From a virus (taxonomy: Duplodnaviria > Heunggongvirae > Uroviricota > Caudoviricetes), in the IMG/VR virus record IMGVR_UViG_2526164597_000009: 37,945 nt of DNA. One strand, written 5' to 3'. A model generated the notes under the pieces. The model saw only the letters and a list, made by a program, of their open reading frames with translations. It searched no databases and was not told where the DNA came from. Shown in pieces: positions 1 through 14,050 of the stretch (its first letter is position 1; each line of letters opens with the position of its first letter). A program made the position numbers and the translations under genes.

Positions 1-1053
1 TTACGGGGTAATGCCAACCGCTGCCGCCACTTTGTCGCCACTTGGCAGCGTTGCCAGAGGATTGAAACGGAGCGCCGTTTCCAGATGATCCGGTGCCAGA
101 TGTGCGTAACGCATCGTCATTTTTATATCGTGATGTCCGAGAATTTTTTGTAAGGCCAGGATGTTTCCACCCGACATCATGAAGTGCGCCGCAAACGTAT
201 GGCGCAGAACGTGTGTGAGTTGACCGCGAGGGAGCACGATAGACGTTTTTTCCATCACGGATAAAAATTGAAAATAGCAGTCTGTGAAGAAATTGAACCC
301 ATCAAGCGCCATGATCTCTTCGTAAAGCTCTTTACTGATAGGGATGCTTCTGTTTTTCTTCCCCTTCGTTCTTACAAATGTAATTCGGTATTTGGTCACC
401 TGTGAACGAGTAAGATTTACGGCTTCTCGCCAGCGTGCGCCTGTGCTTAAGCATATCTTAACTACCAGTGCCAGAATTGGGTCCTGACGTTTGCAATCAG
501 CCAGTAATTCAACAATCTGCTCATGGGTAAGCCATGCCATCTCTTTTTCAGCGATGGTGAATTTTCGCATGTTCTCCAGTGGGTTCGGATACGACCATTC
601 GCCCAGGCGGGATAGTTCGCTAAAAACACTACTAAGATAGCTTTGCTCCAGGTTAATGGTGACCGGGCTTGCTCCTTTCTTCCATTTTTCGCTGAAGTAG
701 ATCTCTCCTGTCAGGCGTTTATCTCGATAGTGGGCAAACATTTTAGAGGTGAGATCGGTTGCAAGGGGATTGCCCAGAGCGTCAACTATCAACAGCAATT
801 TGTCATAGACATGCTGCCCAGCTGTCAGAGATTTACCATGTAGTTTGAACCATAGCTCAACCACGTCTTTCAGTGTTCGACGATCCACTGATTCACCCAG
901 CCAGGGCTTTGCTTCGGTTTCTTCCATCGTGTGACGCTCAAAAGCCAGAGCTTCACCTTTGGTGGCGAATTGTTTACGCACACGACGTCCACTACGTCCC
1001 GCGGGGTAACATTCGCATAGCCATTTTCCTGTGGTGAATTTTCGTACTGCCAT
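1..1053 (-). CDS. int: Tyrosine integrase (P2/186 Int family)
   Basis: ORF 1..1131 minus; start chosen at internal Met (MAVRKFTTGKW...) because GGAGG lies about 9 nt upstream; C-terminal HxxR...RYAHL catalytic region typical of P2-like integrases. Confidence 0.88.
   Translation of the reverse strand: MAVRKFTTGKWLCECYPAGRSGRRVRKQFATKGEALAFERHTMEETEAKPWLGESVDRRTLKDVVELWFKLHGKSLTAGQHVYDKLLLIVDALGNPLATDLTSKMFAHYRDKRLTGEIYFSEKWKKGASPVTINLEQSYLSSVFSELSRLGEWSYPNPLENMRKFTIAEKEMAWLTHEQIVELLADCKRQDPILALVVKICLSTGARWREAVNLTRSQVTKYRITFVRTKGKKNRSIPISKELYEEIMALDGFNFFTDCYFQFLSVMEKTSIVLPRGQLTHVLRHTFAAHFMMSGGNILALQKILGHHDIKMTMRYAHLAPDHLETALRFNPLATLPSGDKVAAAVGITP
19..40. repeat. Putative attL core (direct repeat cgctgccgccaCtttgtcgcca) lying inside the 3' end of int
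   Basis: 21 of 22 positions identical to 35091..35112; sits at the expected prophage boundary. Confidence 0.5.
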
Positions 1054-1078
1054 AAAAAATGCCCTCCAGTGGAGAGCA

Positions 1079-1106
1079 TTTTTACTGTATGTATAACCAG
1101 TGTCAA
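1079..1106 (-). promoter_or_regulatory. Candidate sigma70 promoter for int (-35 TTGACA, -10 TAAAAA) overlapping a near-consensus LexA-like box at 1085..1100
   Basis: Minus-strand TTGACA (plus 1101..1106), 16-bp spacer, TAAAAA; plus-strand CTGT-N8-CCAG at 1085..1100. Confidence 0.3.
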
Positions 1107-1142
1107 TGTATATGAATTGAGATTCATACATTGAGGTTAATT

Positions 1143-1748
1143 TTATCTTTCTACTTCCCAGCGTAGAGATTGCATTAACATAGCATAAATATTGAACAGG
1201 AAAGTTTTTAAAGTTAATACAAGGAACACTGCACTGCTTCCTACGAGTATATATAGTATTTGAACTCCAACAACTTTAGTGCAATGAGAAAACATTAAGG
1301 CTCTGAGTAATTTTGTAGCCAATCCATTTTCTTGCCCGAAAAGAAGGACTAAAAGATAGATAACAGACCAAAATATGAAATATATAAATACTCTCATAAA
1401 TACGCCATAAACATATTTTAAGTAACTTATCCCGTATAATGGATGCTTATACTCCATTAATGAAAGGAAAAGTTCAGGTTTATTTATGGTTGCAAATATT
1501 GTAAATCCAGTAATTAAAAAACCTAATGTTGTTGTAGTGAATCCGAATACTAAAGGTGTCCATTGTCTAATAGATGAAATTAACTCTGGTGATGAAGATA
1601 GACAAAAAGCATTAATAGATAATAATATCACTAATAATAATGTGAAATAAAAGTCAAATGAATTGACCTTTATTTTTTTAGTTAATTTGTAAACATCATG
1701 CAAAGATCGCTCTTTGGTCAGATCTTCTGGGTTGAATGTATATTTCAT
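1143..1748 (-). CDS. Hypothetical inner-membrane protein (about 4 predicted TM helices), last gene of the repressor-proximal cargo cassette
   Basis: 201-aa ORF in low-GC DNA; hydrophobic stretches such as LLLVILLSINAFCL, LVFGFTTTTLGFLITGFTIFATI, VFIYFIFWSVIYLLVLLFG, FLVLTLKTFLFNIYAML; start is 1 nt from upstream ORF stop. Confidence 0.6.
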   Translation of the reverse strand: MKYTFNPEDLTKERSLHDVYKLTKKIKVNSFDFYFTLLLVILLSINAFCLSSSPELISSIRQWTPLVFGFTTTTLGFLITGFTIFATINKPELFLSLMEYKHPLYGISYLKYVYGVFMRVFIYFIFWSVIYLLVLLFGQENGLATKLLRALMFSHCTKVVGVQILYILVGSSAVFLVLTLKTFLFNIYAMLMQSLRWEVER

Positions 1749-1749
1749 A

Positions 1750-2214
1750 CTATAGCCACCTAGAAATTATTGATGTTAACTTGGAAAAAATTTTAGTATA
1801 ATCTTCACGTTCTGGAATAATAATATTTCCTGCATCCTTTAATTCTGTGAATGCAGAATACGCCTCTTGAGCAGCTCTTTCCAAATCAGAACTAAGTTGT
1901 GGCCTTGATGCTTTTAGAGTAAAACTATCATTATTCCCTGATAGCCTTGCTCCGTGTTCATCTTTACCACTTATAATTACTTTAGAGTTGGCCATTCGGG
2001 TTGCACTTGTTGTTTTTTGAATGACGGCCTCAGAATTTAAACCATCTTCATTTTTATTTGTGTATACTAATTGAGCTTTACTACTATTAAGTTCTTCTTT
2101 TTCTTGTTCAATTTTCCTCCAGAAGCCATCAAGAGATATATTTTCACTATTTGTTGGCAATAACTCAATTGATAATCTATTAACAACAGAAAAGAGTTCA
2201 ACAAAATTGCTCAA
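1750..2214 (-). CDS. Hypothetical protein; probably the C-terminal part of a frameshifted about 348-aa gene (with 2294..2797)
   Basis: ORF begins with TTG and no good RBS; its frame is open upstream into the 3' end of the preceding ORF. Confidence 0.4.
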   Translation of the reverse strand: MSNFVELFSVVNRLSIELLPTNSENISLDGFWRKIEQEKEELNSSKAQLVYTNKNEDGLNSEAVIQKTTSATRMANSKVIISGKDEHGARLSGNNDSFTLKASRPQLSSDLERAAQEAYSAFTELKDAGNIIIPEREDYTKIFSKLTSIISRWL

Positions 2215-2293
2215 TGATCTTGGGTCTGTTAAGGGGGTAACCCGTAATTTGGGGGCTCCTAGTTTACGATAAATATCTTTTTTATACAGTCGA

Positions 2294-2797
2294 TCAATGT
2301 ATGATTTTTCTTTCTAATTCTTTTATTTTTTTTACTTCGTAATCCACAAAAGAATTATATCGCTGTGCAAGGCAATACTTGCTAGTATTTTCAAATTCTT
2401 CTAGGGTAGGGGCTCCAGAAACCTCTTTGCAAAGCATTAATCTGTGCTCATTAAGCATAAGAATAAAAATAGAGCTGGGGTGACTTTCTAGCGTCCTGTG
2501 ATCTCGAATTAATTGACCATCTTGAAATATTTGATCTCGTTTAAATATGGTCTTTTTTATAATGCGGCCACACAATGCAATTGTTGGAACTATAGGACCA
2601 ATAAAATCTGAATCTGTAGTATCTAACGTAATAATTTTTGTGTCAGTAAAGAAATATTCTGTATCTTTAAATTTTCTAACGTATTTTTGTGCGAAAAATG
2701 AAGGAAAAACAATGCAATCAAAAGCATCTAAGAGAACTTTGTCCTCTCCAAAATTTAAGGTATAGTTTGCAAATTCAATAGTTTTCGTAAAGCTCAT
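2294..2797 (-). CDS. Hypothetical protein; probably the N-terminal part of a frameshifted cargo gene
   Basis: 167-aa ORF in low-GC DNA starting 2 nt after the repressor stop; ends at an A5/T5 homopolymer (plus 2305..2309) where a 1-nt shift joins it to the next frame. Confidence 0.5.
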   Translation of the reverse strand: MSFTKTIEFANYTLNFGEDKVLLDAFDCIVFPSFFAQKYVRKFKDTEYFFTDTKIITLDTTDSDFIGPIVPTIALCGRIIKKTIFKRDQIFQDGQLIRDHRTLESHPSSIFILMLNEHRLMLCKEVSGAPTLEEFENTSKYCLAQRYNSFVDYEVKKIKELERKIIH

Positions 2798-2799
2798 TG

Positions 2800-3741
2800 T
2801 TAAACCCTTTTTCTAATTATTCCTTTAACTTTATTATTAAATTCCAAATCTTCTTTATCGCATTCAAAGCTATATTTTGTGTTTTCAACGCGGATGCGAT
2901 TGTTTGGAAGTTTAAATATGTCTCTAAAAGTAAATTCTCCGTTAATAGATACTAACCATAGACCATCGCTAAGATACTCCTCTTTGCTAATGATATATGA
3001 ATCATTTGCGGAATTAACTATATAGGGATGTTTTAAATTTTGAGGTAAAATTTCGCTCGAAACGATTAATTCTCTTTGATCAGTAAGTTTGCCGTCACGT
3101 AGATCATAGCAGTCTAATGTAAGCAACCCACTTAGCTTTGTTTGATTGGAATGCCCCTTACCAAAAGATAACCACTCGAGAGACACTCCTGTTTCTAAAC
3201 AGCATTGGATGATCCAGTCTGCCGGAAAAATGTCTCGCATGTATCGTGTAGCTAATGTGCTTTTTGAGATACCAAGGTGATCGGCTAAGGCTTGGCGCGT
3301 TTTGTAACCGTAAGCCTTAACAATTCGCTCTATTGCTGCTTTACCCCCTCGAGTGAAATCCATGTGGTTTTCATTATCGAACTTTATCGTGGGGGTGTGA
3401 ACTTCATTGCAAAATTCATCTGCAGACTGTTTTTCAGCATGCCGTTCTGGCGAAGGAGCTGGCACTCCTTCTTCAGCATCTAAACCAAATGCTAACCATT
3501 CGATTGATGCGCCAGTTTCCATTGAACATATAACAACCCAATCAGCAGGGAAGGTATCGCGTGCATATCTGTTAGCCATTGTACTTTGTGAAATACCAAG
3601 GTGGTTACAGAATGCTTGGCGTGATTTGAAACCATAGGCCATGAGTATTCTCTCAATGACTTTTTGCCCTCCTCGATTCTGCATGACCATGGCTTTCAGA
3701 TGATCTTCAACATGGCGAAATGTGATTTTATTAGTTGACAT
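2800..3741 (-). CDS. cI: Phage 186 CI-type immunity repressor with tandemly duplicated N-terminal HTH domain
   Basis: 313 aa; two about 65 percent identical modules (GGQKVIERILMAYGFKSRQAF...EWLAFG and GGKAAIERIVKAYGYKTRQAL...EWLSFG) then a C-terminal domain (GLWLVSINGEFTFRDIFKLPNNRIRVENTKYSFECD) resembling the 186 CI C-terminus as I recall it. Confidence 0.75.
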   Translation of the reverse strand: MSTNKITFRHVEDHLKAMVMQNRGGQKVIERILMAYGFKSRQAFCNHLGISQSTMANRYARDTFPADWVVICSMETGASIEWLAFGLDAEEGVPAPSPERHAEKQSADEFCNEVHTPTIKFDNENHMDFTRGGKAAIERIVKAYGYKTRQALADHLGISKSTLATRYMRDIFPADWIIQCCLETGVSLEWLSFGKGHSNQTKLSGLLTLDCYDLRDGKLTDQRELIVSSEILPQNLKHPYIVNSANDSYIISKEEYLSDGLWLVSINGEFTFRDIFKLPNNRIRVENTKYSFECDKEDLEFNNKVKGIIRKRV

Positions 3742-3829: not shown

Positions 3830-4051
3830 ATGACCCCTAACATTTCAATAACTCTGAATACGCCGCACGTCACAATTGAGCGTTATAGCGAACTTACTGG
3901 TCTTTCTATCGACACAATCAACGATATGCTGGCTGATGGTCGCATCCCTCGTCATCGCCTTCGGAAAGACAAGAAAAGAGAAAAGGTAATGATCAACCTT
4001 GCTGCTCTTACCGTTGATGCACTTACTGATTGCAATGTTGTATTCAACTAG
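3830..4051 (+). CDS. apl: Apl/Cox-like excisionase and transcriptional regulator (small HTH protein)
   Basis: 73-aa ORF with AGGAGA RBS 9 nt upstream of ATG at 3830; position between repressor and cII as in phage 186. Confidence 0.6.
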
Positions 4052-4083
4052 TTCCATTTTGGGATACATCAGGGGTGTCGACT

Positions 4084-4593
4084 ATGTTTGATTACCAAGT
4101 TTCCAAACATCCACATTTTGATGAAGCCTGTCGTGCATTCGCGCTGCGCCACAACCTGGTGCAACTGGCAGAACGTGCTGGCATGAATGTGCAGATTCTG
4201 CGGAACAAGCTGAACCCGGCTCAACCTCATTTATTAACCGCACCAGAAATCTGGCTGCTTACCGATCTGACTGAAGATTCAACGCTGGTAGATGGTTTTC
4301 TGGCTCAGATTCACTGCCTGCCATGCGTACCGATTAATGAGGTGGCAAAAGAGAAACTGCCACATTACGTCATGAGTGCAACCGCAGAGATCGGGCGTGT
4401 TGCTGCAGGTGCGGTATCTGGCGATGTAAAAACCAGTGCAGGTCGTCGTGATGCTATCAGCAGCATTAACTCTGTAACACGACTGATGGCGCTGGCGGCT
4501 GTTTCATTGCAGGCCCGTTTACAGGCTAATCCTGCGATGGCGAGTGCAGTTGATACCGTGACTGGCCTCGGTGCTTCATTCGGTTTGCTGTGA
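4084..4593 (+). CDS. cII: CII-like lysogeny establishment activator (186 CII family)
   Basis: 169 aa from [24 protein letters not shown]...; closely matches 186 CII as recalled ([20 protein letters not shown]...). Confidence 0.8.
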
Positions 4594-5409: not shown

Positions 5410-5636
5410 TGGCTGATGCAATGGATCTCGTACAGCAGCGCGTTGAAGAAGAACGCCAGCGTCATATCCGTGCTGCCCGTGCCAAAACGCCGGGAGTGTC
5501 CCGCGTGCTTTGCGTTGAGTGTGAAGCGCCAATTCCGCCAGCACGCCGCCGTGCCATTCCGGGTGTGCAACTTTGCATTACCTGTCAGGAAATCGCAGAG
5601 CTGAAAGGCAAACATTACAACGGAGGTGCTGTATGA
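5409..5636 (+). CDS. TraR/DksA-family C4 zinc-finger protein
   Basis: CVEC...(17 aa)...CITC zinc-finger spacing; start overlaps upstream stop (TGATG). Confidence 0.7.
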   Translation: MADAMDLVQQRVEEERQRHIRAARAKTPGVSRVLCVECEAPIPPARRRAIPGVQLCITCQEIAELKGKHYNGGAV

Positions 5637-6487
5637 GCACCATCCTGAAATGGGCGGGAAATAAAACTGCCATAATGTCCGAACTGAAAAAACATCTTCC
5701 TGCTGGCCCGCGACTGGTTGAACCTTTCGCGGGTTCCTGTGCTGTGATGATGGAGACGGATTATCCCAGCTATCTGGTTGCGGATATTAATCCTGATTTA
5801 ATCAACCTCTATAAAAAGGTTGCCGCTGATTGTGAATCGTTTATATCTCGCGCCAGAGTTTTATTTGAGATCGCAAACAGGGAGGTGGCTTATTACAACA
5901 TAAGGCAGGAGTTTAATTACTCAACTGAAATTACTGATTTCATGAGAGCGGTATATTTCCTGTATCTCAATCGTCACGGTTACCGTGGTTTATGTCGCTA
6001 TAACAAGAGCGGGCATTTCAACATTCCCTACGGTAATTATAAAAATCCGTATTTCCCTGAAAAAGAAATTCGCGCATTTGCAGAAAAGGCCCAGCGAGCA
6101 ACGTTTATCTGCGCCAGCTTTGATGAAACGCTGGCGATGTTGAAGGCGGGGGATGTGGTGTATTGCGATCCGCCGTATGACGGTACGTTTTCCGGCTATC
6201 ACACTGATGGTTTCACTGAAGATGACCAGTATCACCTGGCATCCGTTCTTGAACATCGAGCATCTGAAGGACATCCGGTCATTGTTTCTAACAGTGACAC
6301 GTCTTTGACCCGGTCTCTTTATCGTAATTTCACTCACCACTACATCAGGGCGAAACGCAGCATCGGCGTTGCAGCGGGGGAGGGAAAATTTGCAACAGAG
6401 ATGATTGCCACTAAATCTGCTAATTGGTTTAGTGCCGATTTTAGTAGGGGACGTGACTCTACTGTTATTTTCGGGGTGCAAGTGTGA
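5633..6487 (+). CDS. dam: DNA adenine methyltransferase (Dam-like, N6-adenine)
   Basis: ILKWAGNK N-terminus, [11 protein letters not shown]-binding motif, CDPPYDG catalytic motif; ATGA overlap with upstream gene. Confidence 0.88.
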
Positions 6488-7314
6488 AAGAAATGCACCA
6501 CGGAATTCATCATTTCCATGGGACGCCTGTCTGGGGAAGTGCTGGCGACGTTCATCGTATTGCGGTGAGCGGAGCTGGTGCTTTCGTCTCCTATGTACGA
6601 CCAGATCAGATTGCGGCGTCCATTCAGCACGCCCAGGTCGTTGGCATTGATAACGGCGCATTTTCTGCATGGGTGCGTGGGCTAAAAATTAACTGGAATG
6701 ATTTTTATAAATGGCTCCTGAACTATTACCACCATCCTAAGGTCGCTTTTTTTGTCATTCCTGATGTTGTGGACGGAGGTGAACGTGACAATGATGCCCT
6801 GATAAACGAAGTTCCGAAAATGTTCTACGGGAAGGCAACTCCCGTCTGGCATCTGCACGAGTCAATCGATCGGCTTATCGAGCTATGTCGTGAATGGCCT
6901 CGTGTCTGCTTTGGATCGTCTGGTGAATATGCGGCTATTAGAACTGCGCACTGGCATCGTCGTATGCAGGACGCTTTTGAAGCAATTTATTGCCGACACA
7001 ATTTCAAAACAGCTGTTCATGGTTTGCGCATGCTTGACGGTCGTGTGTTGGGAAATTACCCACTGGCGACTGCCGACAGTACAAATCTTGCCTGCAATGT
7101 CCCCAAATTTAATAGCAAATATCCTGAGCTTACGCGGGCTATTCAGGAGGCTGAGTATTCGCGCAATCTGACGGAAAAGGAGCTGAAAGCTGTCATTCTG
7201 AAAAACCGTTGCGCAATTTTAAAAGGTGCAATTGAAGCTGTTCGCCCACCTTCAGTTTCTGACTGGCTGTCGAATGGTTTGCAGCCTTCACAGCTCGAAC
7301 TGGAGATTGCGTAA
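6484..7314 (+). CDS. Hypothetical enzyme translationally coupled to Dam and A; possible DNA-modification function
   Basis: 276-aa ORF with GTG start overlapping dam stop; motifs [35 protein letters not shown] faintly recall the TGT/DpdA TIM-barrel pattern (unverified). Confidence 0.55.
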
Positions 7315-9686
7315 TGAACTACAGCTATTCCTGGAATGCTGAGAAAAAAGCAATCAATCCTTACGTAGAGACAGAAGAGCAATCTTCAGTTTCTGCGCTT
7401 TCAAACCTGATCGCTCTGTACGCTGCCGATAACGAGCAGGAACACCTGCGCCGCGAGGTACTGAGTGATCAGGTCTGGGAGCGTTATTTCTTTAATGAAT
7501 CCCGTGATCCTGTTCAGCGCGAAATGGAGCAGGATAAGCTCATTAGTCGGGCAAAGCTGGCGCATGAGCAGCAGCGTTTTAATCCAGATATGGTCATTCT
7601 GGCGGACGTCAATGCCCAGCCTTCCCATATCAGCAAGCCGCTGATGCAACGTATTGAATACTTCAGCAGCCTTGGCAGGCCAAAGGCTTATTCCCGCTAT
7701 TTGCGTGAGACGATTAAGCCATGTCTGGAACGGCTGGAGCATGTGCGCGACAGTCAGCTATCCACTTCTTTTCGCTTTATGGCAAGCCATGAAGGGCTGG
7801 ACGGCCTGCTGATTCTGCCTGAAATGAGTCAGGATCAGGTGAAACGCCTGTCCACCCTTGTTGCTGCGCATATGAGCATGTGCCTTGATGCAGCTTGTGG
7901 CGATTTGTATGCCACCGATGACGTTAAGCCAGAAGAAATCCGCAAGACATGGGAAAAGGTGGCAGCAGAAACCCTGCGACTGGATGTCATACCGCCTGCG
8001 TTTGAGCAACTCCGCCGGAAAAGAAACCGCCGTAAACCCGTGCCCTATGAACTCATTCCGGGTTCGCTGGCGCGTATGTTGTGCGCCGACTGGTGGTACC
8101 GGAAATTATGGAAGATGCGTTGCGAATGGCGGGAAGAGCAGTTGCGTGCTGTTTGCCTGGTCAGCAAAAAAGCATCTCCCTATGTCAGCTATGAAGCCGT
8201 GATGCATAAACGTGAGCAGCGCCGTAAGTCGCTGGAGTTTTTCCGTTCTCATGAACTGGTGAACGAAGACGGCGACACGCTGGACATGGAGGATGTGGTA
8301 AACGCCAGCAGCAGCAACCCTGCGCATCGCCGCAATGAGATGATGGCCTGTGTTAAAGGTCTGGAGCTTATCGCGGAAATGCGCGGTGACTGCGCCGTTT
8401 TCTACACCATCACCTGTCCGTCACGTTTCCATTCCACGCTAAATAACGGCAGGCCCAACCCAACCTGGACAAATGCGACGGTAAGACAAAGCAGTGATTA
8501 TCTGGTCGGCATGTTTGCTGCATTTCGTAAGGCGATGCACAAAGCCGGATTGCGGTGGTATGGCGTGCGGGTGGCTGAGCCGCATCATGACGGTACAGTT
8601 CACTGGCACCTGTTGTGTTTTATGCGCAAAAAAGACCGCCGCACCATCACTGCATTACTGCGTAAGTTTGCCATCCGTGAAGACCGCGAGGAGCTGGGCA
8701 ATAACACTGGGCCGCGCTTTAAGTCTGAGTTGATTAACCCGCGCAAAGGTACGCCAACAAGCTACATCGCGAAATACATCAGTAAGAACATTGACGGGCG
8801 TGGTCTGGCTGGCGAGATCAGCAAGGAAACGGGGAAATCCCTGCGTGATAATGCTGAATACGTTAATGCCTGGGCGTCTCTGCATCGTGTTCAGCAATTC
8901 CGCTTCTTTGGCATTCCGGGGCGTCAGGCTTACCGTGAACTGCGATTGCTGGCTGGTCAGGCGGCAAGGCAACAGGGGGACAAAAAAGCAGGTGCGCCGG
9001 TACTGGATAACCCGCGCCTTGATGCCATTCTGGCTGCTGCTGATGCTGGTTGTTTTGCCACCTACATCATGAAGCAGGGTGGCGTACTGGTTCCCCGCAA
9101 ATATCACCTCATCAGAACTGCTTATGAAATCAACGAAGAGCCGACCGCCTATGGCGATCACGGCATTCGTATTTATGGCATCTGGTCACCTATTGCAGAG
9201 GGCAAGATCTGCACTCATGCCGTGAAGTGGAAAATGGTTCGTAAGGCCGTTGACGTTCAGGAGGCGGCAGCCGACCAGGGCGCTTGCGCCCCTTGGACTC
9301 GTGGCAATAACTGTCCCCTTGCTGAAAATTTGAACCAACAGGAGAAAGATAAATCAGCTGATGGGGGCACTAGAACGGACATTACCCGCATGGATGACAA
9401 GGAGTTGCACGATTACCTGCACAGTATGAGCAAAAAAGAGCGCTGGGAACTGGCAGCAAGGTTACGCCTGGTTAAACCGAAACGGCGTAAAGACTACAAA
9501 CAGCGAATTACAGACCATCAGCGACTGCAGCTCGTCTATGAGCTGAAGTCCAGAGGATTTGATGGTAGCGAGAAAGAGGTCGATTTACTCCTTCGCGGCG
9601 GCAGTATTCCGTCAGGAGCAGGCCTGCGTATCTTCTATCGGAACCAGCGTTTGCGGGAAGATGATAAGTGGCGGAACCTGTATTAA
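7314..9686 (+). CDS. A: Replication initiation endonuclease (P2 gpA-like rolling-circle HUH endonuclease)
   Basis: 790 aa; HUH motif VHWHLLCF and tyrosine motif YIAKYISK; position after early operon. Confidence 0.9.
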
Positions 9687-9780
9687 TTCCGCGGGCTAAC
9701 AATTCGTGCTCTTAATAATACCAGGCATATCATGCTAATGAATGTAAAAAAACGTTTTACATCAGTAAGATTATTATATA

Positions 9781-9796
9781 CTGTAAATATAAACAG
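9781..9796 (+). promoter_or_regulatory. LexA box (CTGT-N8-ACAG) in the promoter of the tum/dinI-like operon
   Basis: Perfect CTGTAAATATAAACAG about 45 nt upstream of the ATG at 9840, adjacent to AT-rich -10-like sequence. Confidence 0.6.
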
Positions 9797-9839
9797 TGGT
9801 TATGCATACAGTGTTGCTTGTGGTGTCATAGGAGGAAAA

Positions 9840-10028
9840 ATGCAGGACTATTTTTTGGAGTCTTTGAAGCTCCAGCGCATTGATTTTTTTCTTAAGCTTG
9901 TAGCGGCTAGTGAGTGTAGTGATGAAGAGAAGGGGCTGGCTCTGCAGTGGGTTTCTGAATTGACTGATGAACTCATGGCAAAGATCAGAATCCACGAATA
10001 CAACCGCTCAATGGATGTCATCAGTTGA
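9840..10028 (+). CDS. Small SOS-regulated protein, possible Tum-like antirepressor N-terminal module
   Basis: 62 aa; strong AGGAGG RBS; immediately downstream of the LexA box. Confidence 0.4.
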   Translation: MQDYFLESLKLQRIDFFLKLVAASECSDEEKGLALQWVSELTDELMAKIRIHEYNRSMDVIS

Positions 10029-10038
10029 GGTGGCTTTT

Positions 10039-10272
10039 ATGCGCATTGAAATAATGATCGATAAAGAGCAGAAAATTAGCCAGTCTACTCTGGACGCCCT
10101 TGAATCCGAGCTTTACCGCAATCTGCGCCCCCTGTATCCCAAAGCGGTAATTCGTATCCGTAAAGGTAGCTCTAATGGTGTGGAACTGACCGGACTGCAA
10201 CTGGACGAAGAAAGAAAACAAGTGATGAAAATTATGCAGAAGGTGTGGGAAGACGACAGCTGGCTGCATTAA
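10039..10272 (+). CDS. dinI: DinI-family protein
   Basis: 77 aa, MRIEIMIDKEQKISQSTLDALESELYRNL...WEDDSWLH resembles E. coli DinI (MRIEVTIAK...ETWESADDWF); GAGG RBS. Confidence 0.7.
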   Translation: MRIEIMIDKEQKISQSTLDALESELYRNLRPLYPKAVIRIRKGSSNGVELTGLQLDEERKQVMKIMQKVWEDDSWLH

Positions 10273-10538
10273 GAAACGTTGCTGGCGTCTGAACTTGCTT
10301 CTGACGTCAGCAACGTTGAACAACTAGTTTAGTGGGGCATTAGTCATGGGGTAAAATACAGTAACCATTATTTTCACTTCCGCTCAGATTTAACCGAACG
10401 TTAGTTTTGCTACGTATGATGGGCTGCAAATTACCTTTTGGGATTTGTGATAGATACGAAAATCCTATTAGATGCTTGTTAGACCGGAAGCGCCACTTCG
10501 AACGAAAAGTAATGGCCACTTATGCCGGTTTAAAAGCC

Positions 10539-11069
10539 TTAACCTTGTATAGTTATTTGAATATTTTCTTCATTAACACCAAAGTATAGGGCTAGCCCTG
10601 CTTTTGCCTCCTGAAGTGTTAACGGCTTAACTACATTTTCTTCTTCTTCTTCGTACTCATCACCCGCTTGATCGACAATCGAATTAGTCGGGGTTAATTT
10701 TGGAAGAGCTTTAAATTCCAACTTGTCAGCCTCAATGCCAATGTCTTTGAGGTTGCGATAAGATACGGGATTCCGATTGCCATCCCATTGTCCTGGGATG
10801 TCAATTTCAGCATAAGAATTGATGTTTATGATCCAGCGTTTAGGGTTTTCTGGAGCCCTGCTTACTCCCGAGATTCGACCGATCATAAAAGCATGATGAT
10901 GTTTTGCTTCTTGTGATCCCCAGTCCTTTCTCGAATTTTGTACACAAACTAAATATTCGTGCTTAGCTGCATGGCTGGCGTCAAGTCTCCATGCTTGGCT
11001 TCCCCCTGTGTTCAAAATCTCTGTTAAACCACGAGCAGTAAGTACAGTAATACAGTTGGTAGTAGCCAT
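10539..11069 (-). CDS. Hypothetical cargo protein (orphan gene in the cos-proximal variable region)
   Basis: 176-aa ORF on the opposite strand to neighbours, in low-GC DNA; acidic DEYEEEEEN tract; no family recognised. Confidence 0.5.
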   Translation of the reverse strand: MATTNCITVLTARGLTEILNTGGSQAWRLDASHAAKHEYLVCVQNSRKDWGSQEAKHHHAFMIGRISGVSRAPENPKRWIININSYAEIDIPGQWDGNRNPVSYRNLKDIGIEADKLEFKALPKLTPTNSIVDQAGDEYEEEEENVVKPLTLQEAKAGLALYFGVNEENIQITIQG

Positions 11070-11385
11070 TGAATTGTGACCCCGTCTTTTTTAGAGAAAT
11101 ACTATTGATGAATGTAGTTTACGTATTTTTTTATGGAGTAGTCAAGTTAGTATTATGCTCATTATTGGCTGTTTGTTGAGTATTGTGAGTTAGTACTTTG
11201 TGTAGTACCTCTTGATTTATGAGAATTAAATCTAAGTTATGACAAAGGGAGGCAGGGGGAACGCGCAGCGCAAGGTGGACAGGAGGCCATAAGGACTCAC
11301 TTGAAGTAAGAAAAGATCGATAAAGCAACAATGCATGTCTATGCCGCATGAATTCGCATGATCGTTTGAGGATCGTTTTAGCTGA

Positions 11386-11414
11386 GGCCCGCCAGGAATG
11401 GCGGGCTTTTGTTT
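11386..11414 (+). terminator. Rho-independent terminator (stem GCCCGCC/GGCGGGC followed by TTTTGTTT)
   Basis: 7-bp GC stem, 6-nt loop, T-rich tail on the plus strand; about 40 bp upstream of cos. Confidence 0.6.
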
Positions 11415-11455
11415 ATGTCATGCAAGTGCATGAAAACCACTACATAAAGCGGGCT

Positions 11456-11474
11456 GGCGTGGCGGGGATACGAG
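11456..11474. other. Candidate cos site (cohesive-end sequence GGCGTGGCGGGGATACGAG)
   Basis: Resembles the P2/186 19-nt cohesive end (GGCGAGGCGGGGAAAGCAC as recalled); located upstream of Q 3' end in the A-to-Q interval. Confidence 0.45.
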
Positions 11475-11787
11475 CGCGCGCAACGTGCATGATATGGCAA
11501 TATGCATAACCTAGTTGATGAGATGTCTTGCCACTAATAATATTAAAACGATTGAAACATGTGTTCCGTCCGTACCATAATCTTTAAGTGGGTGCAGGGC
11601 TAAATTGTATGATGAAGTATCATATTGCTTCTGAATACTAATGGATAAGTACACGATTGATGTGATGTTATTGCTGACTATTTTTTGTTCTAGTCTTACC
11701 GAAGACCCAACACGGGAGAAGAAATAGAAATTAATTGCGTGCCCTTTAAGTGCACAATTTAGCAACAATTTAAAAATGAGGTGAACA

Positions 11788-12186
11788 GTGAAAGAGTTGG
11801 AACTATATAATCTGAATTTTTATTTTAGCTTGTGTACTTCAGATGAAGTGGAAAGAATAAAAAATGTATCAAACTCGGCGGATTACTTACTCAAAATTAG
11901 GGCTAATGCAACTATAGAACATATCAGAATCCATCGGGTATTACTAGCTGCAATGCGTAGAAGTGGAAATAATTGGTCATTAAGTAGTTATTTTGATGAT
12001 TCTCCTTTTGAGGATTATATTGATGATGTTTCTGAACAGTACAAAGAACATCTAGAAGGGATCTCTGGCGGATTTGTATTTTGCAATGATCCGAATGGTC
12101 GGATATTAAAAACTGATTATGGATGTGTGATTACTATTTCAGAATCACTTAAGTATTTTTTGTATTACATGAATTTAGCTTTTTAA
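11788..12186 (+). CDS. Hypothetical protein; likely N-terminal part of a frameshifted HEXXH-peptidase gene
   Basis: 132-aa ORF with GTG start and AGGTG RBS; ends just after a T6 run (12156..12161) where a -1 shift enters the downstream frame. Confidence 0.45.
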   Translation: MKELELYNLNFYFSLCTSDEVERIKNVSNSADYLLKIRANATIEHIRIHRVLLAAMRRSGNNWSLSSYFDDSPFEDYIDDVSEQYKEHLEGISGGFVFCNDPNGRILKTDYGCVITISESLKYFLYYMNLAF

Positions 12187-12251
12187 CTTTTGATGATTGT
12201 GATGTTCCTGATGATGTAAGAATTGCTGCATTAAGAATTGCAATAAGAACT

Positions 12252-12869
12252 ATGATGCAAAAGGAATCAATGGATTTTGAAATTGATCCACGTGGTATAA
12301 TTCCATCACAAATTGATATGGAAATTAGGTACCATGTAAATGATGTGATGAAGTTTATTGTTGGTCATGAATATTCACATTACGTACTTGGGCATTTGAA
12401 TGATGAATCAACTTTCGAGGCGAGTTTTTTAACCTCTATTGATACGGAAGAAGTTAAACACAAATTTTTCTCCTATGACCAAAAGGATGAACTAGCAGCA
12501 GATATTCATTCTTTACGAATGTTGTCGCTTTCTAAAGAAAAATTGGCTGGGTTAATTCAAAAGGTTTGTATCTACTTCGTGTTCATGGATATATATTCAA
12601 ATGTAAAAGATCAGGTGTCACCTTCACTTAATTTCACAAAGACTCACCCTGAACCAATGGATAGGCTTAGAAATATCATAGAAGAGTTTAAGGAGGAAGT
12701 GGAAATTGATTATAATGAAATGGATAAGTTCATCAGATCAGGTGAGGTCATAAAGGGTTTCTTGCAAGATGATGCTGGGTATAATTTTGATGAAATATAT
12801 GATTTTTATGGATCAATTTATTTAGGTCAGTGGAGGGGAAAGCCGTTAATAGATAGGGTAGACTATTGA
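12252..12869 (+). CDS. HEXXH zinc metallopeptidase-like protein (ImmA/IrrE-like motif); likely C-terminal part of a split about 360-aa gene
   Basis: GHEYSHYVLGH motif near residue 38; the frame is open 33 codons upstream of the ATG without a start codon or RBS. Confidence 0.55.
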   Translation: MMQKESMDFEIDPRGIIPSQIDMEIRYHVNDVMKFIVGHEYSHYVLGHLNDESTFEASFLTSIDTEEVKHKFFSYDQKDELAADIHSLRMLSLSKEKLAGLIQKVCIYFVFMDIYSNVKDQVSPSLNFTKTHPEPMDRLRNIIEEFKEEVEIDYNEMDKFIRSGEVIKGFLQDDAGYNFDEIYDFYGSIYLGQWRGKPLIDRVDY

Positions 12870-12883
12870 GTTGATGTTTATAT

Positions 12884-12930
12884 CCCAAATGACAATCAAA
12901 AATAGTGAACTTCTGTGACTGTCATTTGGG
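12884..12930. terminator. Hairpin between convergent genes (possible bidirectional terminator)
   Basis: 11-bp perfect inverted repeat CCCAAATGACA/TGTCATTTGGG with a 25-nt loop, between the peptidase gene and the Q 3' end. Confidence 0.35.
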
Positions 12931-13003
12931 TGGTGATTGTAATTTTTATTTGCAGTGGTTATGCATCTTTGGTTTAAGGTTTTTCTATAGAGAGAATGCT
13001 CGT

Positions 13004-14050
13004 CTATTTAGCATGGTTGGAATCTAATATATATTTATTGAATTTCACAATTTCATCACCTATCCAAGTATTTAGCTGCGATATTTGATGTTGTAGTGGT
13101 ATTAATTCATTTCTAACAAAAACCGTACTTGCCTTCTCCACATCCCCAAACCCACCAACATTACTTGGCATAATCCCCATCATTTGCGGCGGAACGCGGT
13201 GCGCAGCCATCATATCGTCACGGCTCACGTTCTTGATGTTCAAAAACTCATCCTTTGCCGCCACTTCTGACAGCGGGATGATCTGAATGCCATCCTTTTT
13301 ACCGTTGGGCGAGTACATAAACAGGTTGCGGAAGTTGCCCGGCCCTTTGGCGCTTTTCATGGCATGGCGGATGTTGTTCACGTCCTCCTGGTTCTGCGCG
13401 GCGTCGGTCATGTACATGATGAAGCCTGCATGACTGCCGTTGATGTAATATTTCCTGCGGAACAGCGTGGCGGACTCGTTGAGCAGGGCTGACGGAATAG
13501 CAGAAAGATAGCCGGGCAGGCCGTAGATCTCCTGATTTATGTCCGGTTCCATCAGATGAAAAATGCTGCCTTTCGTGAACTGATACGGCTGGGTTGTCAT
13601 ACCGTATTGCACAAACCAGTAGGTATCCAGGTCTAACCCGCGTCGGGTGTATTTTGCCAGTGCAGGCTCAAGGGCGATAACTTCACCGAAGCGGTTCGTG
13701 CGTTTCTCCAGGTAGGCGTTACCAAAAACCAGATAGTCCTGCACAAAACGCGAAAAAGCCTGCTGGCTGAGCAGCGGGTGAGGGATGTAGGTGCTGGTCA
13801 GAATGTTGCATTTCACTGCAATCGGTGAACTGTGATGCACGGCAGCGCGGAAGGTGCGCGCCAGCCCGTCAAAGCTGACGGGCGGCTCATACCAACGGTC
13901 CATCTGTACGCATTCCACATAGTCCAGCAGTTCTCGGCGGTCCAGAACAGGAACGGGATCGCCGAAGCTGAATGCTTCGGCTGTAGTCTGGTTTTTATGC
14001 TGGATCTGATTCGTCGCCGCAGCGCGGTTCTTCTTACTCTTTCCCATCAA
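13004..14050 (-). CDS. Q: Portal protein (P2 gpQ-like)
   Basis: 348 aa; position and size match P2 Q (344 aa); stop/start overlap with P. Confidence 0.88.
   Translation of the reverse strand: MMGKSKKNRAAATNQIQHKNQTTAEAFSFGDPVPVLDRRELLDYVECVQMDRWYEPPVSFDGLARTFRAAVHHSSPIAVKCNILTSTYIPHPLLSQQAFSRFVQDYLVFGNAYLEKRTNRFGEVIALEPALAKYTRRGLDLDTYWFVQYGMTTQPYQFTKGSIFHLMEPDINQEIYGLPGYLSAIPSALLNESATLFRRKYYINGSHAGFIMYMTDAAQNQEDVNNIRHAMKSAKGPGNFRNLFMYSPNGKKDGIQIIPLSEVAAKDEFLNIKNVSRDDMMAAHRVPPQMMGIMPSNVGGFGDVEKASTVFVRNELIPLQHQISQLNTWIGDEIVKFNKYILDSNHAK

Follow-up and report, generated by a model that had tools for sequence, protein, structure and literature searches.

We analyzed a 37,945-nucleotide stretch of DNA (IMG/VR record IMGVR_UViG_2526164597_000009; "the window" below means this whole stretch), which is a 186/P2-like Escherichia coli prophage, and concentrated on one gene of its minus strand at positions 10539–11069. 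The gene encodes a protein of 176 amino acids and lies between the replication endonuclease gene A and the portal gene Q, an interval that corresponds to the P2 hotspot described by Rousset et al. 2022 (PMC9122126). We consider it likely, with a probability of roughly 0.75, that the product is a PUA-like reader that mobile elements carry as conflict cargo.

The gene and its cargo module

The features of the A–Q interval are as follows.

7314–9686: replication endonuclease gene A
10039–10272, plus strand: DinI-like gene (Pfam DinI, 1.4e-22)
10275–10317: hairpin between the DinI-like gene and the gene under study; both strands fold
10344–11331: autonomous cargo module of the left sub-slot (the gene plus flanks of 260 bp on its 5' side and 200 bp on its 3' side), delimited by BLASTN homology breaks
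10539–11069, minus strand: coding sequence under study, 176 amino acids, ATG start
11116–11189, minus strand: three overlapping candidate sigma-70-like promoters, 47–120 nt upstream of the ATG
11332–11484: conserved 150-bp spacer with a strong intrinsic terminator (stem 11384–11409, plus strand, z score −4.7)
13004–14050, minus strand: portal gene Q

A preliminary description of this DNA, made from the letters alone, had reported a 176-amino-acid open reading frame (ORF) on the opposite strand, in low-GC DNA, convergent with the DinI-like gene and inside the A-to-Q interval. All of this was confirmed: RefSeq protein WP_000246368.1 is the identical ORF, equal in length and position, and the GC content of the gene is 0.418 (0.333 at third codon positions) against 0.526 (0.568) for neighboring gene A. 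The product has a mass of 19.6 kDa and an isoelectric point (pI) of 5.4. Comparison with an 88%-identical Enterobacter copy gave a ratio of nonsynonymous to synonymous substitution rates (dN/dS) of ∼0.10 (dN 0.059, dS 0.612); this is a real gene under selection.

The hotspot interval is split into two independently swapped sub-slots, left and right, and the gene is one of the variable elements that are exchanged there as modules. When the window was compared by BLASTN with "empty" and alternatively filled P2-like loci, homology broke at ∼10328–10367 and again at 11328–11332, so that the module appears as a 1-kb insertion between the hairpin 3' of the DinI-like gene and the 150-bp spacer. The hairpin is strong on either strand (plus, −27.3 kcal/mol, z −5.6; minus, −22.9 kcal/mol, z −4.7) and is likely a bidirectional terminator. 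Of 5,426 complete E. coli genomes, 1,100 had a match to a flank query that includes the spacer. Six aligned loci and many of the 60 rows sampled were seen to contain the spacer proper; the other rows matched on the DinI side only. The spacer may serve to anchor recombination when cassettes are exchanged. An Rfam search of 9600–13100 revealed no structured RNA. The gene and its 5' flank (10538–11481) are 79% identical in an Enterobacter P2-like prophage, the flank being conserved along with the gene. The ∼200 bp that follow the gene on its 3' side in the E. coli module (10344–10538) are missing from the Enterobacter version and contain only a 59-amino-acid ORF.

The left sub-slot is empty in many of the sampled prophages and in others is occupied by a 141-amino-acid protein, a DUF6236 protein, a GNAT protein or a DUF4145 protein, the last with a weak match to PD-T7-4 (E 2e-5). 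A DNA search placed the gene in 8 of the 5,426 complete E. coli genomes, always at the A–Q position and at least 99% identical. Its right-slot companions in these genomes include a HipA-like gene with a HIRAN domain (PADLOC candidate PDC-M03) and an St85 retron, and at least three annotated partners were counted. The same A–Q position was found in at least 14 P2-like IMG/VR contigs, and the 11 contigs that reach Q had about ten kinds of right-slot cargo among them, for example AAA ATPases or a DGQHR/ParB-like pair. Because the identical gene is thus combined with unrelated right-slot cargo, we regard it as a self-contained single-gene unit. In one IMG/VR P2-like contig (L062, 6001–6527) the homologue was matched as two overlapping pieces, residues 1–101 and the last 85 residues, which suggests a frameshifted copy.

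The window's own right sub-slot holds an M48/Lit-like metallopeptidase gene (11788–12869, plus strand). It appears as two ORFs, of 132 and 205 amino acids, because a 1-nt deletion within a T-run at ∼12179–12184 breaks the single gene in two; a 99.8%-identical IMG/VR contig (L048) has the intact single ORF of ∼359 amino acids. The protein has an HExxH motif, a Pfam Peptidase_M48 match (3e-6) and weak Lit matches, and this cargo was not found in the 5,426 complete E. coli genomes. Either a Lit-like defense candidate has been pseudogenized in the window, or the split is a sequencing error.

Protein anatomy and predicted fold

Family alignments together with an AlphaFold2 model divide the protein into three parts, all encoded on the minus strand.

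10695–11069: N-domain, residues 1–125, predicted PUA-like beta-barrel of the EVE/YTH/ASCH class; basic (pI 9.0)
10626–10694: variable acidic linker, residues 126–148, including DEYEEEEEN; predicted local distance difference test (pLDDT) below 50 at residues 127–144
10542–10625: C-terminal motif, residues 149–176, PLTxxEAKxGLAxxFGVxxxxIxITIxG, read from the family alignment

The model has a mean pLDDT of 84, with ∼90 in the N-domain and 84–88 in the C-terminal motif, where a confident helix spans residues 152–163. Structure comparison showed a beta pseudo-barrel in which a helix follows strand 1, the arrangement of PUA-like domains, and known structures gave the following comparison scores.

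PH1033 (EVE): 7.6
YTHDC2: 7.1
YTHDC1: 6.9
VcaM4I (EVE-HNH type IV enzyme): 6.9
DrmA: 6.7
PD-T4-3 (GIY-YIG-EVE, specific for 5-hydroxymethylcytosine): 6.4
ZmASCH: 6.2
THYN1: 5.9
McrB N-domains: 5.0

Foldseek probabilities were 0.99 for DrmA, 0.98 for the ASCH domain of TRIP4 and 0.82 for PD-T4-3, and BFVD returned only borderline matches, to two uncharacterized proteins of Erwinia phage Yoloswag. On this modeling, the N-domain is a PUA-like reader fold of the EVE/YTH/ASCH class. At the sequence level, the target had no match at E≤1 to the PUA-clan Pfam families (EVE, YTH, ASCH, PUA, DUF3850), none of 45 diverse N-domains of the family had one, and a search of PDB sequences with the protein or the family profile gave nothing meaningful. 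Because the scores are moderate and membership in the PUA clan is absent at the sequence level, we assign the protein to the fold class only and place it in no curated family. A DUF3850/ASCH protein of a related P2-like prophage (E. coli MS1665) was also considered as a relative and rejected (hhalign probability 1.5%).

The residues that are invariant or nearly so in the N-domain are T11, G23, W27, N45, H57, F61, R78, W95, R99, P101 and Y104, and conservation of the aromatic and basic ones holds in 45 N-domains that are only 30–49% identical to the target. By their conservation, W27, F61, W95, Y104, H57, R78, R99, T11 and N45 may together form one nucleobase pocket.

The linker is conserved in neither length nor sequence and is nearly absent from a 153-amino-acid homologue (P0061). 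The C-terminal motif was present in 208 of 224 family members examined and has the shape of a helix and a turn followed by a short helix or strand. P0061, a natural short-linker version, was modeled with a pLDDT of 91.8, a predicted template modeling score of 0.79 and a C-terminal helix at 93–96, and this confidence suggests that the predicted tail packs on the barrel. The motif itself matched neither PDB nor Pfam: a PDB profile search returned only designed-repeat artefacts and matches at E≥0.05, and a Pfam scan of 35 motif peptides gave scattered single matches, including Tautomerase_2 and SHOCT-like ones. An impression that it resembles a helix-turn-helix or a 4-oxalocrotonate tautomerase was left unsupported by these searches.

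The preliminary description had singled out an acidic tract and a histidine cluster. Both are present (DEYEEEEEN at residues 137–145 and KHHHAF at residues 56–61), but neither deserves much weight as a telling feature, since the tract belongs to a disposable, disordered linker and only H57 of the cluster is invariant, with H58 mostly His and H59 variable. A DNA mimic of the ArdA/Ocr type was considered and rejected: the acidic run is a disordered, non-conserved linker of 9–20 residues, nearly absent in some members, the N-domain is basic, and there is no ArdA/Ocr match.

Two of the 150 best family representatives, from which fusion architectures were read, have the N-domain fused to defense-type domains. 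P0206 consists of the N-domain followed by DUF3427 and HNH, which is the architecture of a modification-dependent endonuclease, and in P0210 the N-domain is fused to AbiTii; in both, the effector takes the place of the C-terminal motif. The N-domain is thus also used as the N-terminal module of HNH and AbiTii proteins. A third representative, P0106, is a tandem duplication of the N-domain. A profile search with the N-domain was uninformative on further fusions, as all proteins among the 120 matches listed were ∼170 amino acids long.

A widespread family without a name

The gene had been called an orphan, which it is not. A word-indexed search found 74 close relatives, 1.84 billion representatives searched exhaustively with a profile yielded 998 clusters (50% identity) at E≤1e-3, 308 of them at E≤1e-30, and a profile search with the N-domain gave 1,169 clusters at 90% identity. 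The related statement that it belongs to no recognizable family was correct for Pfam, NCBIfam and PADLOC but not for PHROGs, in which PHROG 37247, of unknown function, matches the protein end to end (6e-94). No Pfam family was consistently matched across 45 diverse members. Named hosts include Gamma- and Alphaproteobacteria, Acidobacteriota, Myxococcota and actinobacterial plasmids, and the relatives are all called "hypothetical protein" in their source records. We found no publication on this protein, accession look-ups were empty, and the gene was not found in the searchable part of Table S5 of Rousset et al. 2022.

Outside the hotspot, the family is frequent on plasmids: 188 PLSDB plasmids carry it, 159 of them mobilizable and most 4–9 kb in size. 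On ColE1-like enterobacterial plasmids, the homologue is followed after a 5-bp gap by a Sel1-repeat gene of ∼195 amino acids, and the two form a two-gene unit (in our loci L024, 615–1746; L026, 1076–2199; and L007). No such Sel1-repeat partner occurs in the window, in the prophage versions or at any other locus examined. The Acinetobacter pRAY-type plasmid pABLAC2 has a homologue directly downstream of mobA, a site that is probably not in the leading region.

Relatives also occur in integrase-flanked islets and at another position of a P2-like prophage, near a C5-methylase and ImuB/UmuD-like genes. One in Pectobacterium has ParDE as its neighbor, and another adjoins AbiEii/DUF6088 and an HsdR-like gene. 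A Stutzerimonas relative adjoins TraG and an integrase, a context like that of an integrative and conjugative element, and distant relatives (28% identity) are found in large Brevundimonas phages of 348 kb. At two loci (L043, 5001–7636, and L044), a family member stands beside a type I restriction-modification system and an FRG-domain gene. The same member lies 176 bp upstream, on the same strand, of ThyA-like and aGPT-Pplase3/ADDT thymidine-hypermodification genes, a gene order that may link the reader to a specific DNA hypermodification. No partner gene was conserved across the contexts examined. The gene is an autonomous cargo module, both in a defense-rich hotspot and on many kinds of mobile element, and the family consists of widespread, unnamed, effector-less PUA-like readers (as modeled) spread as single-gene cargo.

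In an HK97-like prophage of Aeromonas media (L017, 7956–8576), a full-length member lies between the S49 head protease and major capsid genes, which is the usual place of a decoration or scaffold gene. The member is identical in L064 and related in L063. It is most likely a moron, because a 69%-identical copy is the Stutzerimonas one that adjoins integrase and TraG genes.

Other features of the prophage

The other annotated genes of the window are the following.

1–1131, minus strand: HP1/P2-type integrase
2800–3741, minus strand: CI repressor
4030–4593: CII/CP76
5573–6487: D12 Dam-class methyltransferase
9840–10028: small PHROG-698 ORF

Between the integrase and the CI repressor lie three ORFs of 201, 154 and 167 amino acids (1143–2797, minus strand). 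None has a significant Pfam match, the 154-amino-acid ORF matching DUF4747 weakly, and the region looks like a second cargo region of the prophage. An ORF of 276 amino acids without a Pfam match (6484–7314, plus strand) lies between the methyltransferase gene and gene A; in related prophages a PAPS-reductase-domain gene replaces it at the same position.

Discussion

The preliminary description proposed the gene as a defense or exclusion candidate by position alone. The argument from the locus holds and has become stronger with the hotspot, the module boundaries, the neighbors, the predicted sensor fold and the fusions. Its weak part is that no effector and no PADLOC model accompany the gene and that the family is equally common on small mobilizable plasmids. 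We regard the full defense or exclusion reading as tentative, at somewhat less than even odds, and clearly less secure than the assignment of the protein as a PUA-like reader carried as conflict cargo.

In the reading that we favor, the gene is an autonomous cargo module of the 186/P2-like prophage, would have its own promoter and is probably expressed from the prophage. The putative pocket would bind a nucleobase, the ligand being either a free nucleotide that carries a modification or a modified base flipped out of a DNA or RNA strand, a model patterned on the EVE/YTH readers and on the PUA sensors of Metis and PUA-Cal-HAD. Because the protein has no nuclease or other effector, we infer that it acts non-catalytically. 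It would coat marked phage nucleic acid on entry, or block access to it, or else couple ligand binding through its C-terminal motif to self-assembly or to a partner in trans. Competing phages would then be excluded from the lysogen, as they are by P2 old and tin at the same locus.

Several known systems are instructive here. The EVE/YTH/ASCH proteins (PH1033, 1wmm; THYN1, 5j3e; YTHDC1 and YTHDC2; ZmASCH, 5guq) share the predicted fold with the target but not its sequence profile, and the target has in addition the conserved C-terminal helix-turn motif. The type IV enzymes, namely VcaM4I/TspA15I (EVE-HNH, 6yex), PD-T4-3 (GIY-YIG-EVE, 9u75), the McrB N-domains and the PUA/DUF3427-HNH proteins (PMC6765204), have the sensor fold in common with it and are likewise cargo of mobile elements and defense islands; indeed, the relative P0206 has the same kind of architecture. 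However, these enzymes carry a nuclease, whereas the target is a sensor only, and no HNH, PD-(D/E)XK, GIY-YIG or PLD nuclease domain was found in it. Metis (MisA) and PUA-Cal-HAD have an N-terminal PUA-like domain in which an aromatic/His/Arg pocket binds a modified mononucleotide, and they sense N6-methyl-dAMP (m6dAMP). The pocket reported for PUA-Cal (F9, H23, W35, W38, Y100, Y101, R8, R10 and K40; 10.64898/2026.01.15.699771) resembles the target's conserved set in composition, a comparison made by description and at the level of fold class only. Unlike the target, these systems have metallophosphatase or NADase effectors and form filaments. P2 old, tin, fun(Z) and the P2-hotspot systems of Rousset et al. 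resemble the target in their A–Q locus, low GC content, one or few genes and swapped, lysogenic-conversion-type character (PMC9122126, PMC13586616); they have no relation to it in sequence or fold, and none is a PUA-like reader. By analogy, the target would work like the sensor module of the type IV enzymes, Metis or PUA-Cal-HAD, yet it is a member of none of those families.

A defensive direction is the one we lean toward, on the strength of the locus, the orientation, the flanking hairpins, the neighbors, the fusions and the prior from the literature. The gene runs counter to the early operon, and a terminator-like hairpin lies on each side of its module, the bidirectional one 3' of the gene and a plus-strand one in the spacer 5' of it. 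Among randomly chosen P4 hotspot loci of unknown function, six of eight proved defensive, and 15–32% of unknown P2 proteins are predicted to be antiviral (PMC13586616).

Several observations weigh against the mechanism proposed here or against its direction. The library scans and the structure model revealed no enzymatic or effector domain in the 176-amino-acid protein. PADLOC-DB v2.0.0, which includes PD-T4, PD-T7, PD-Lambda, Lit, AbiTii and PDC candidates, gave no match to the target at E≤1 and no significant match to any of 39 family members (one chance hit, E 0.017). The number of promoter matches was not above the expectation from shuffled sequence, and the clustering of the putative pocket residues is read from conservation and not from model coordinates. 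Moreover, the near-invariance of these residues across phyla suggests a universal ligand, for example a methylated base or nucleotide that is common, and fits this better than a fast-evolving recognition of phage hypermodifications; according to Bell et al. 2020 (PMC7641849), EVE domains that evolve fast are typical of defense contexts. Finally, the abundance of the family on plasmids and its relatives in Brevundimonas phages suit counter-defense at least as well.

Counter-defense is a serious rival for these reasons (the missing effector, the missing PADLOC match, the small mobilizable plasmids and the Brevundimonas phages), and both directions of action stand, although we hold this one to be the less likely of the two, and on balance doubtful. 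An effector-less reader could shield modified bases of a phage or plasmid from type IV restriction enzymes with related sensors. In a variant of the same idea, it could act as a sponge or decoy that sequesters an immune nucleotide, be it a modified one that serves as an alarm signal, as m6dAMP does for Metis and PUA-Cal-HAD, or a different one. A sensor domain without an effector is what would be expected of such a protein, and the family is frequent on invading elements, with 188 plasmids, the Stutzerimonas context, the Brevundimonas phages and the Yoloswag look-alikes as examples. The near-invariant putative pocket, pointing to a universal ligand, also agrees with it, as does the D12 Dam-class methyltransferase carried by the host phage, and PUA pockets have been reported to bind m6dAMP (10.1101/2025.11.05.686725; 10.64898/2026.01.15.699771). 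Yet known anti-defense genes are uncommon among P2-like phages, and no more than 28 P2 elements had any (PMC13586616). The gene stands outside the early operon and is oriented like lysogenic-conversion genes, and the pABLAC2 copy downstream of mobA is probably not in the leading region. We know of no degradation of the host chromosome by P2-like phages, so an m6dAMP sponge would bring them no obvious benefit. Tad1, Tad2 and Acb2 are small, effector-less, ligand-binding phage nucleotide sponges found on mobile elements; their folds differ from that of the target, and they offer a functional analogy for a sponge only. That the target would be the first sponge or decoy of the PUA fold, disarming immunity of the same fold by sequestering a danger nucleotide (e.g., m6dAMP) or by masking modified bases, seems to us quite improbable, at about one-half the weight of counter-defense as a whole or less.

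The protein could also be the sensor half of a split system, with a partner in trans that is either a host protein or a neighbor such as the Sel1-repeat protein, in which case it would be inactive or host-dependent when alone in the P2 slot. The Sel1-repeat gene that begins 5 bp after the homologue on ColE1-like plasmids and the C-terminal position of the effector domains in both fused relatives speak for such an arrangement. However, no partner is kept across contexts, the Sel1-repeat gene is absent from the window and the other loci, and the P2 gene, in identical form, has right-slot companions that are unrelated to one another; we consider a split system unlikely. A housekeeping or regulatory role, in which the protein would read Dam or other methylation for replication, lysogeny or plasmid maintenance and transfer, or would hydrolyze RNA or a modified nucleotide as an ASCH-type enzyme, is of nearly the same low likelihood.

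Homology to a structural phage protein, which the preliminary description had named as evidence that would tell against defense, was searched for, and only chance-level matches to T4 gp8/baseplate wedge were found (Pfam Phage-Gp8, E 0.11, 12 bits where the cut-off is 25 bits, seen in 1 of 45 members; phrog_977, E 0.026). A structural protein or a spurious ORF is effectively refuted, the Aeromonas homologue between head protease and capsid genes notwithstanding, by the Stutzerimonas copy of that protein beside integrase and TraG, by the abundance of the family on 4–6 kb plasmids without virion genes, by the dN/dS of 0.10 and by the confident AlphaFold2 models.

PUA-like readers known from phage-host conflict have so far been sensors attached to nucleases, phosphatases or NADases. 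The family described here, with ∼1,000 clusters at 50% identity and no Pfam model, name or literature, consists of a predicted sensor and a short conserved tail, and it travels as single-gene cargo of P2-like and other prophages, integrative elements and very small plasmids. The question of its action is testable with one 531-bp gene. If the protein is defensive, reading of a mark without an enzymatic effector would suffice for phage exclusion; if it is counter-defensive, it would represent a new class of decoy or sponge against modification-sensing immunity. Either outcome would give a function to PHROG 37247 and would also explain a recurrent "hypothetical protein" of clinical ColE1-like and Acinetobacter pRAY-type plasmids.

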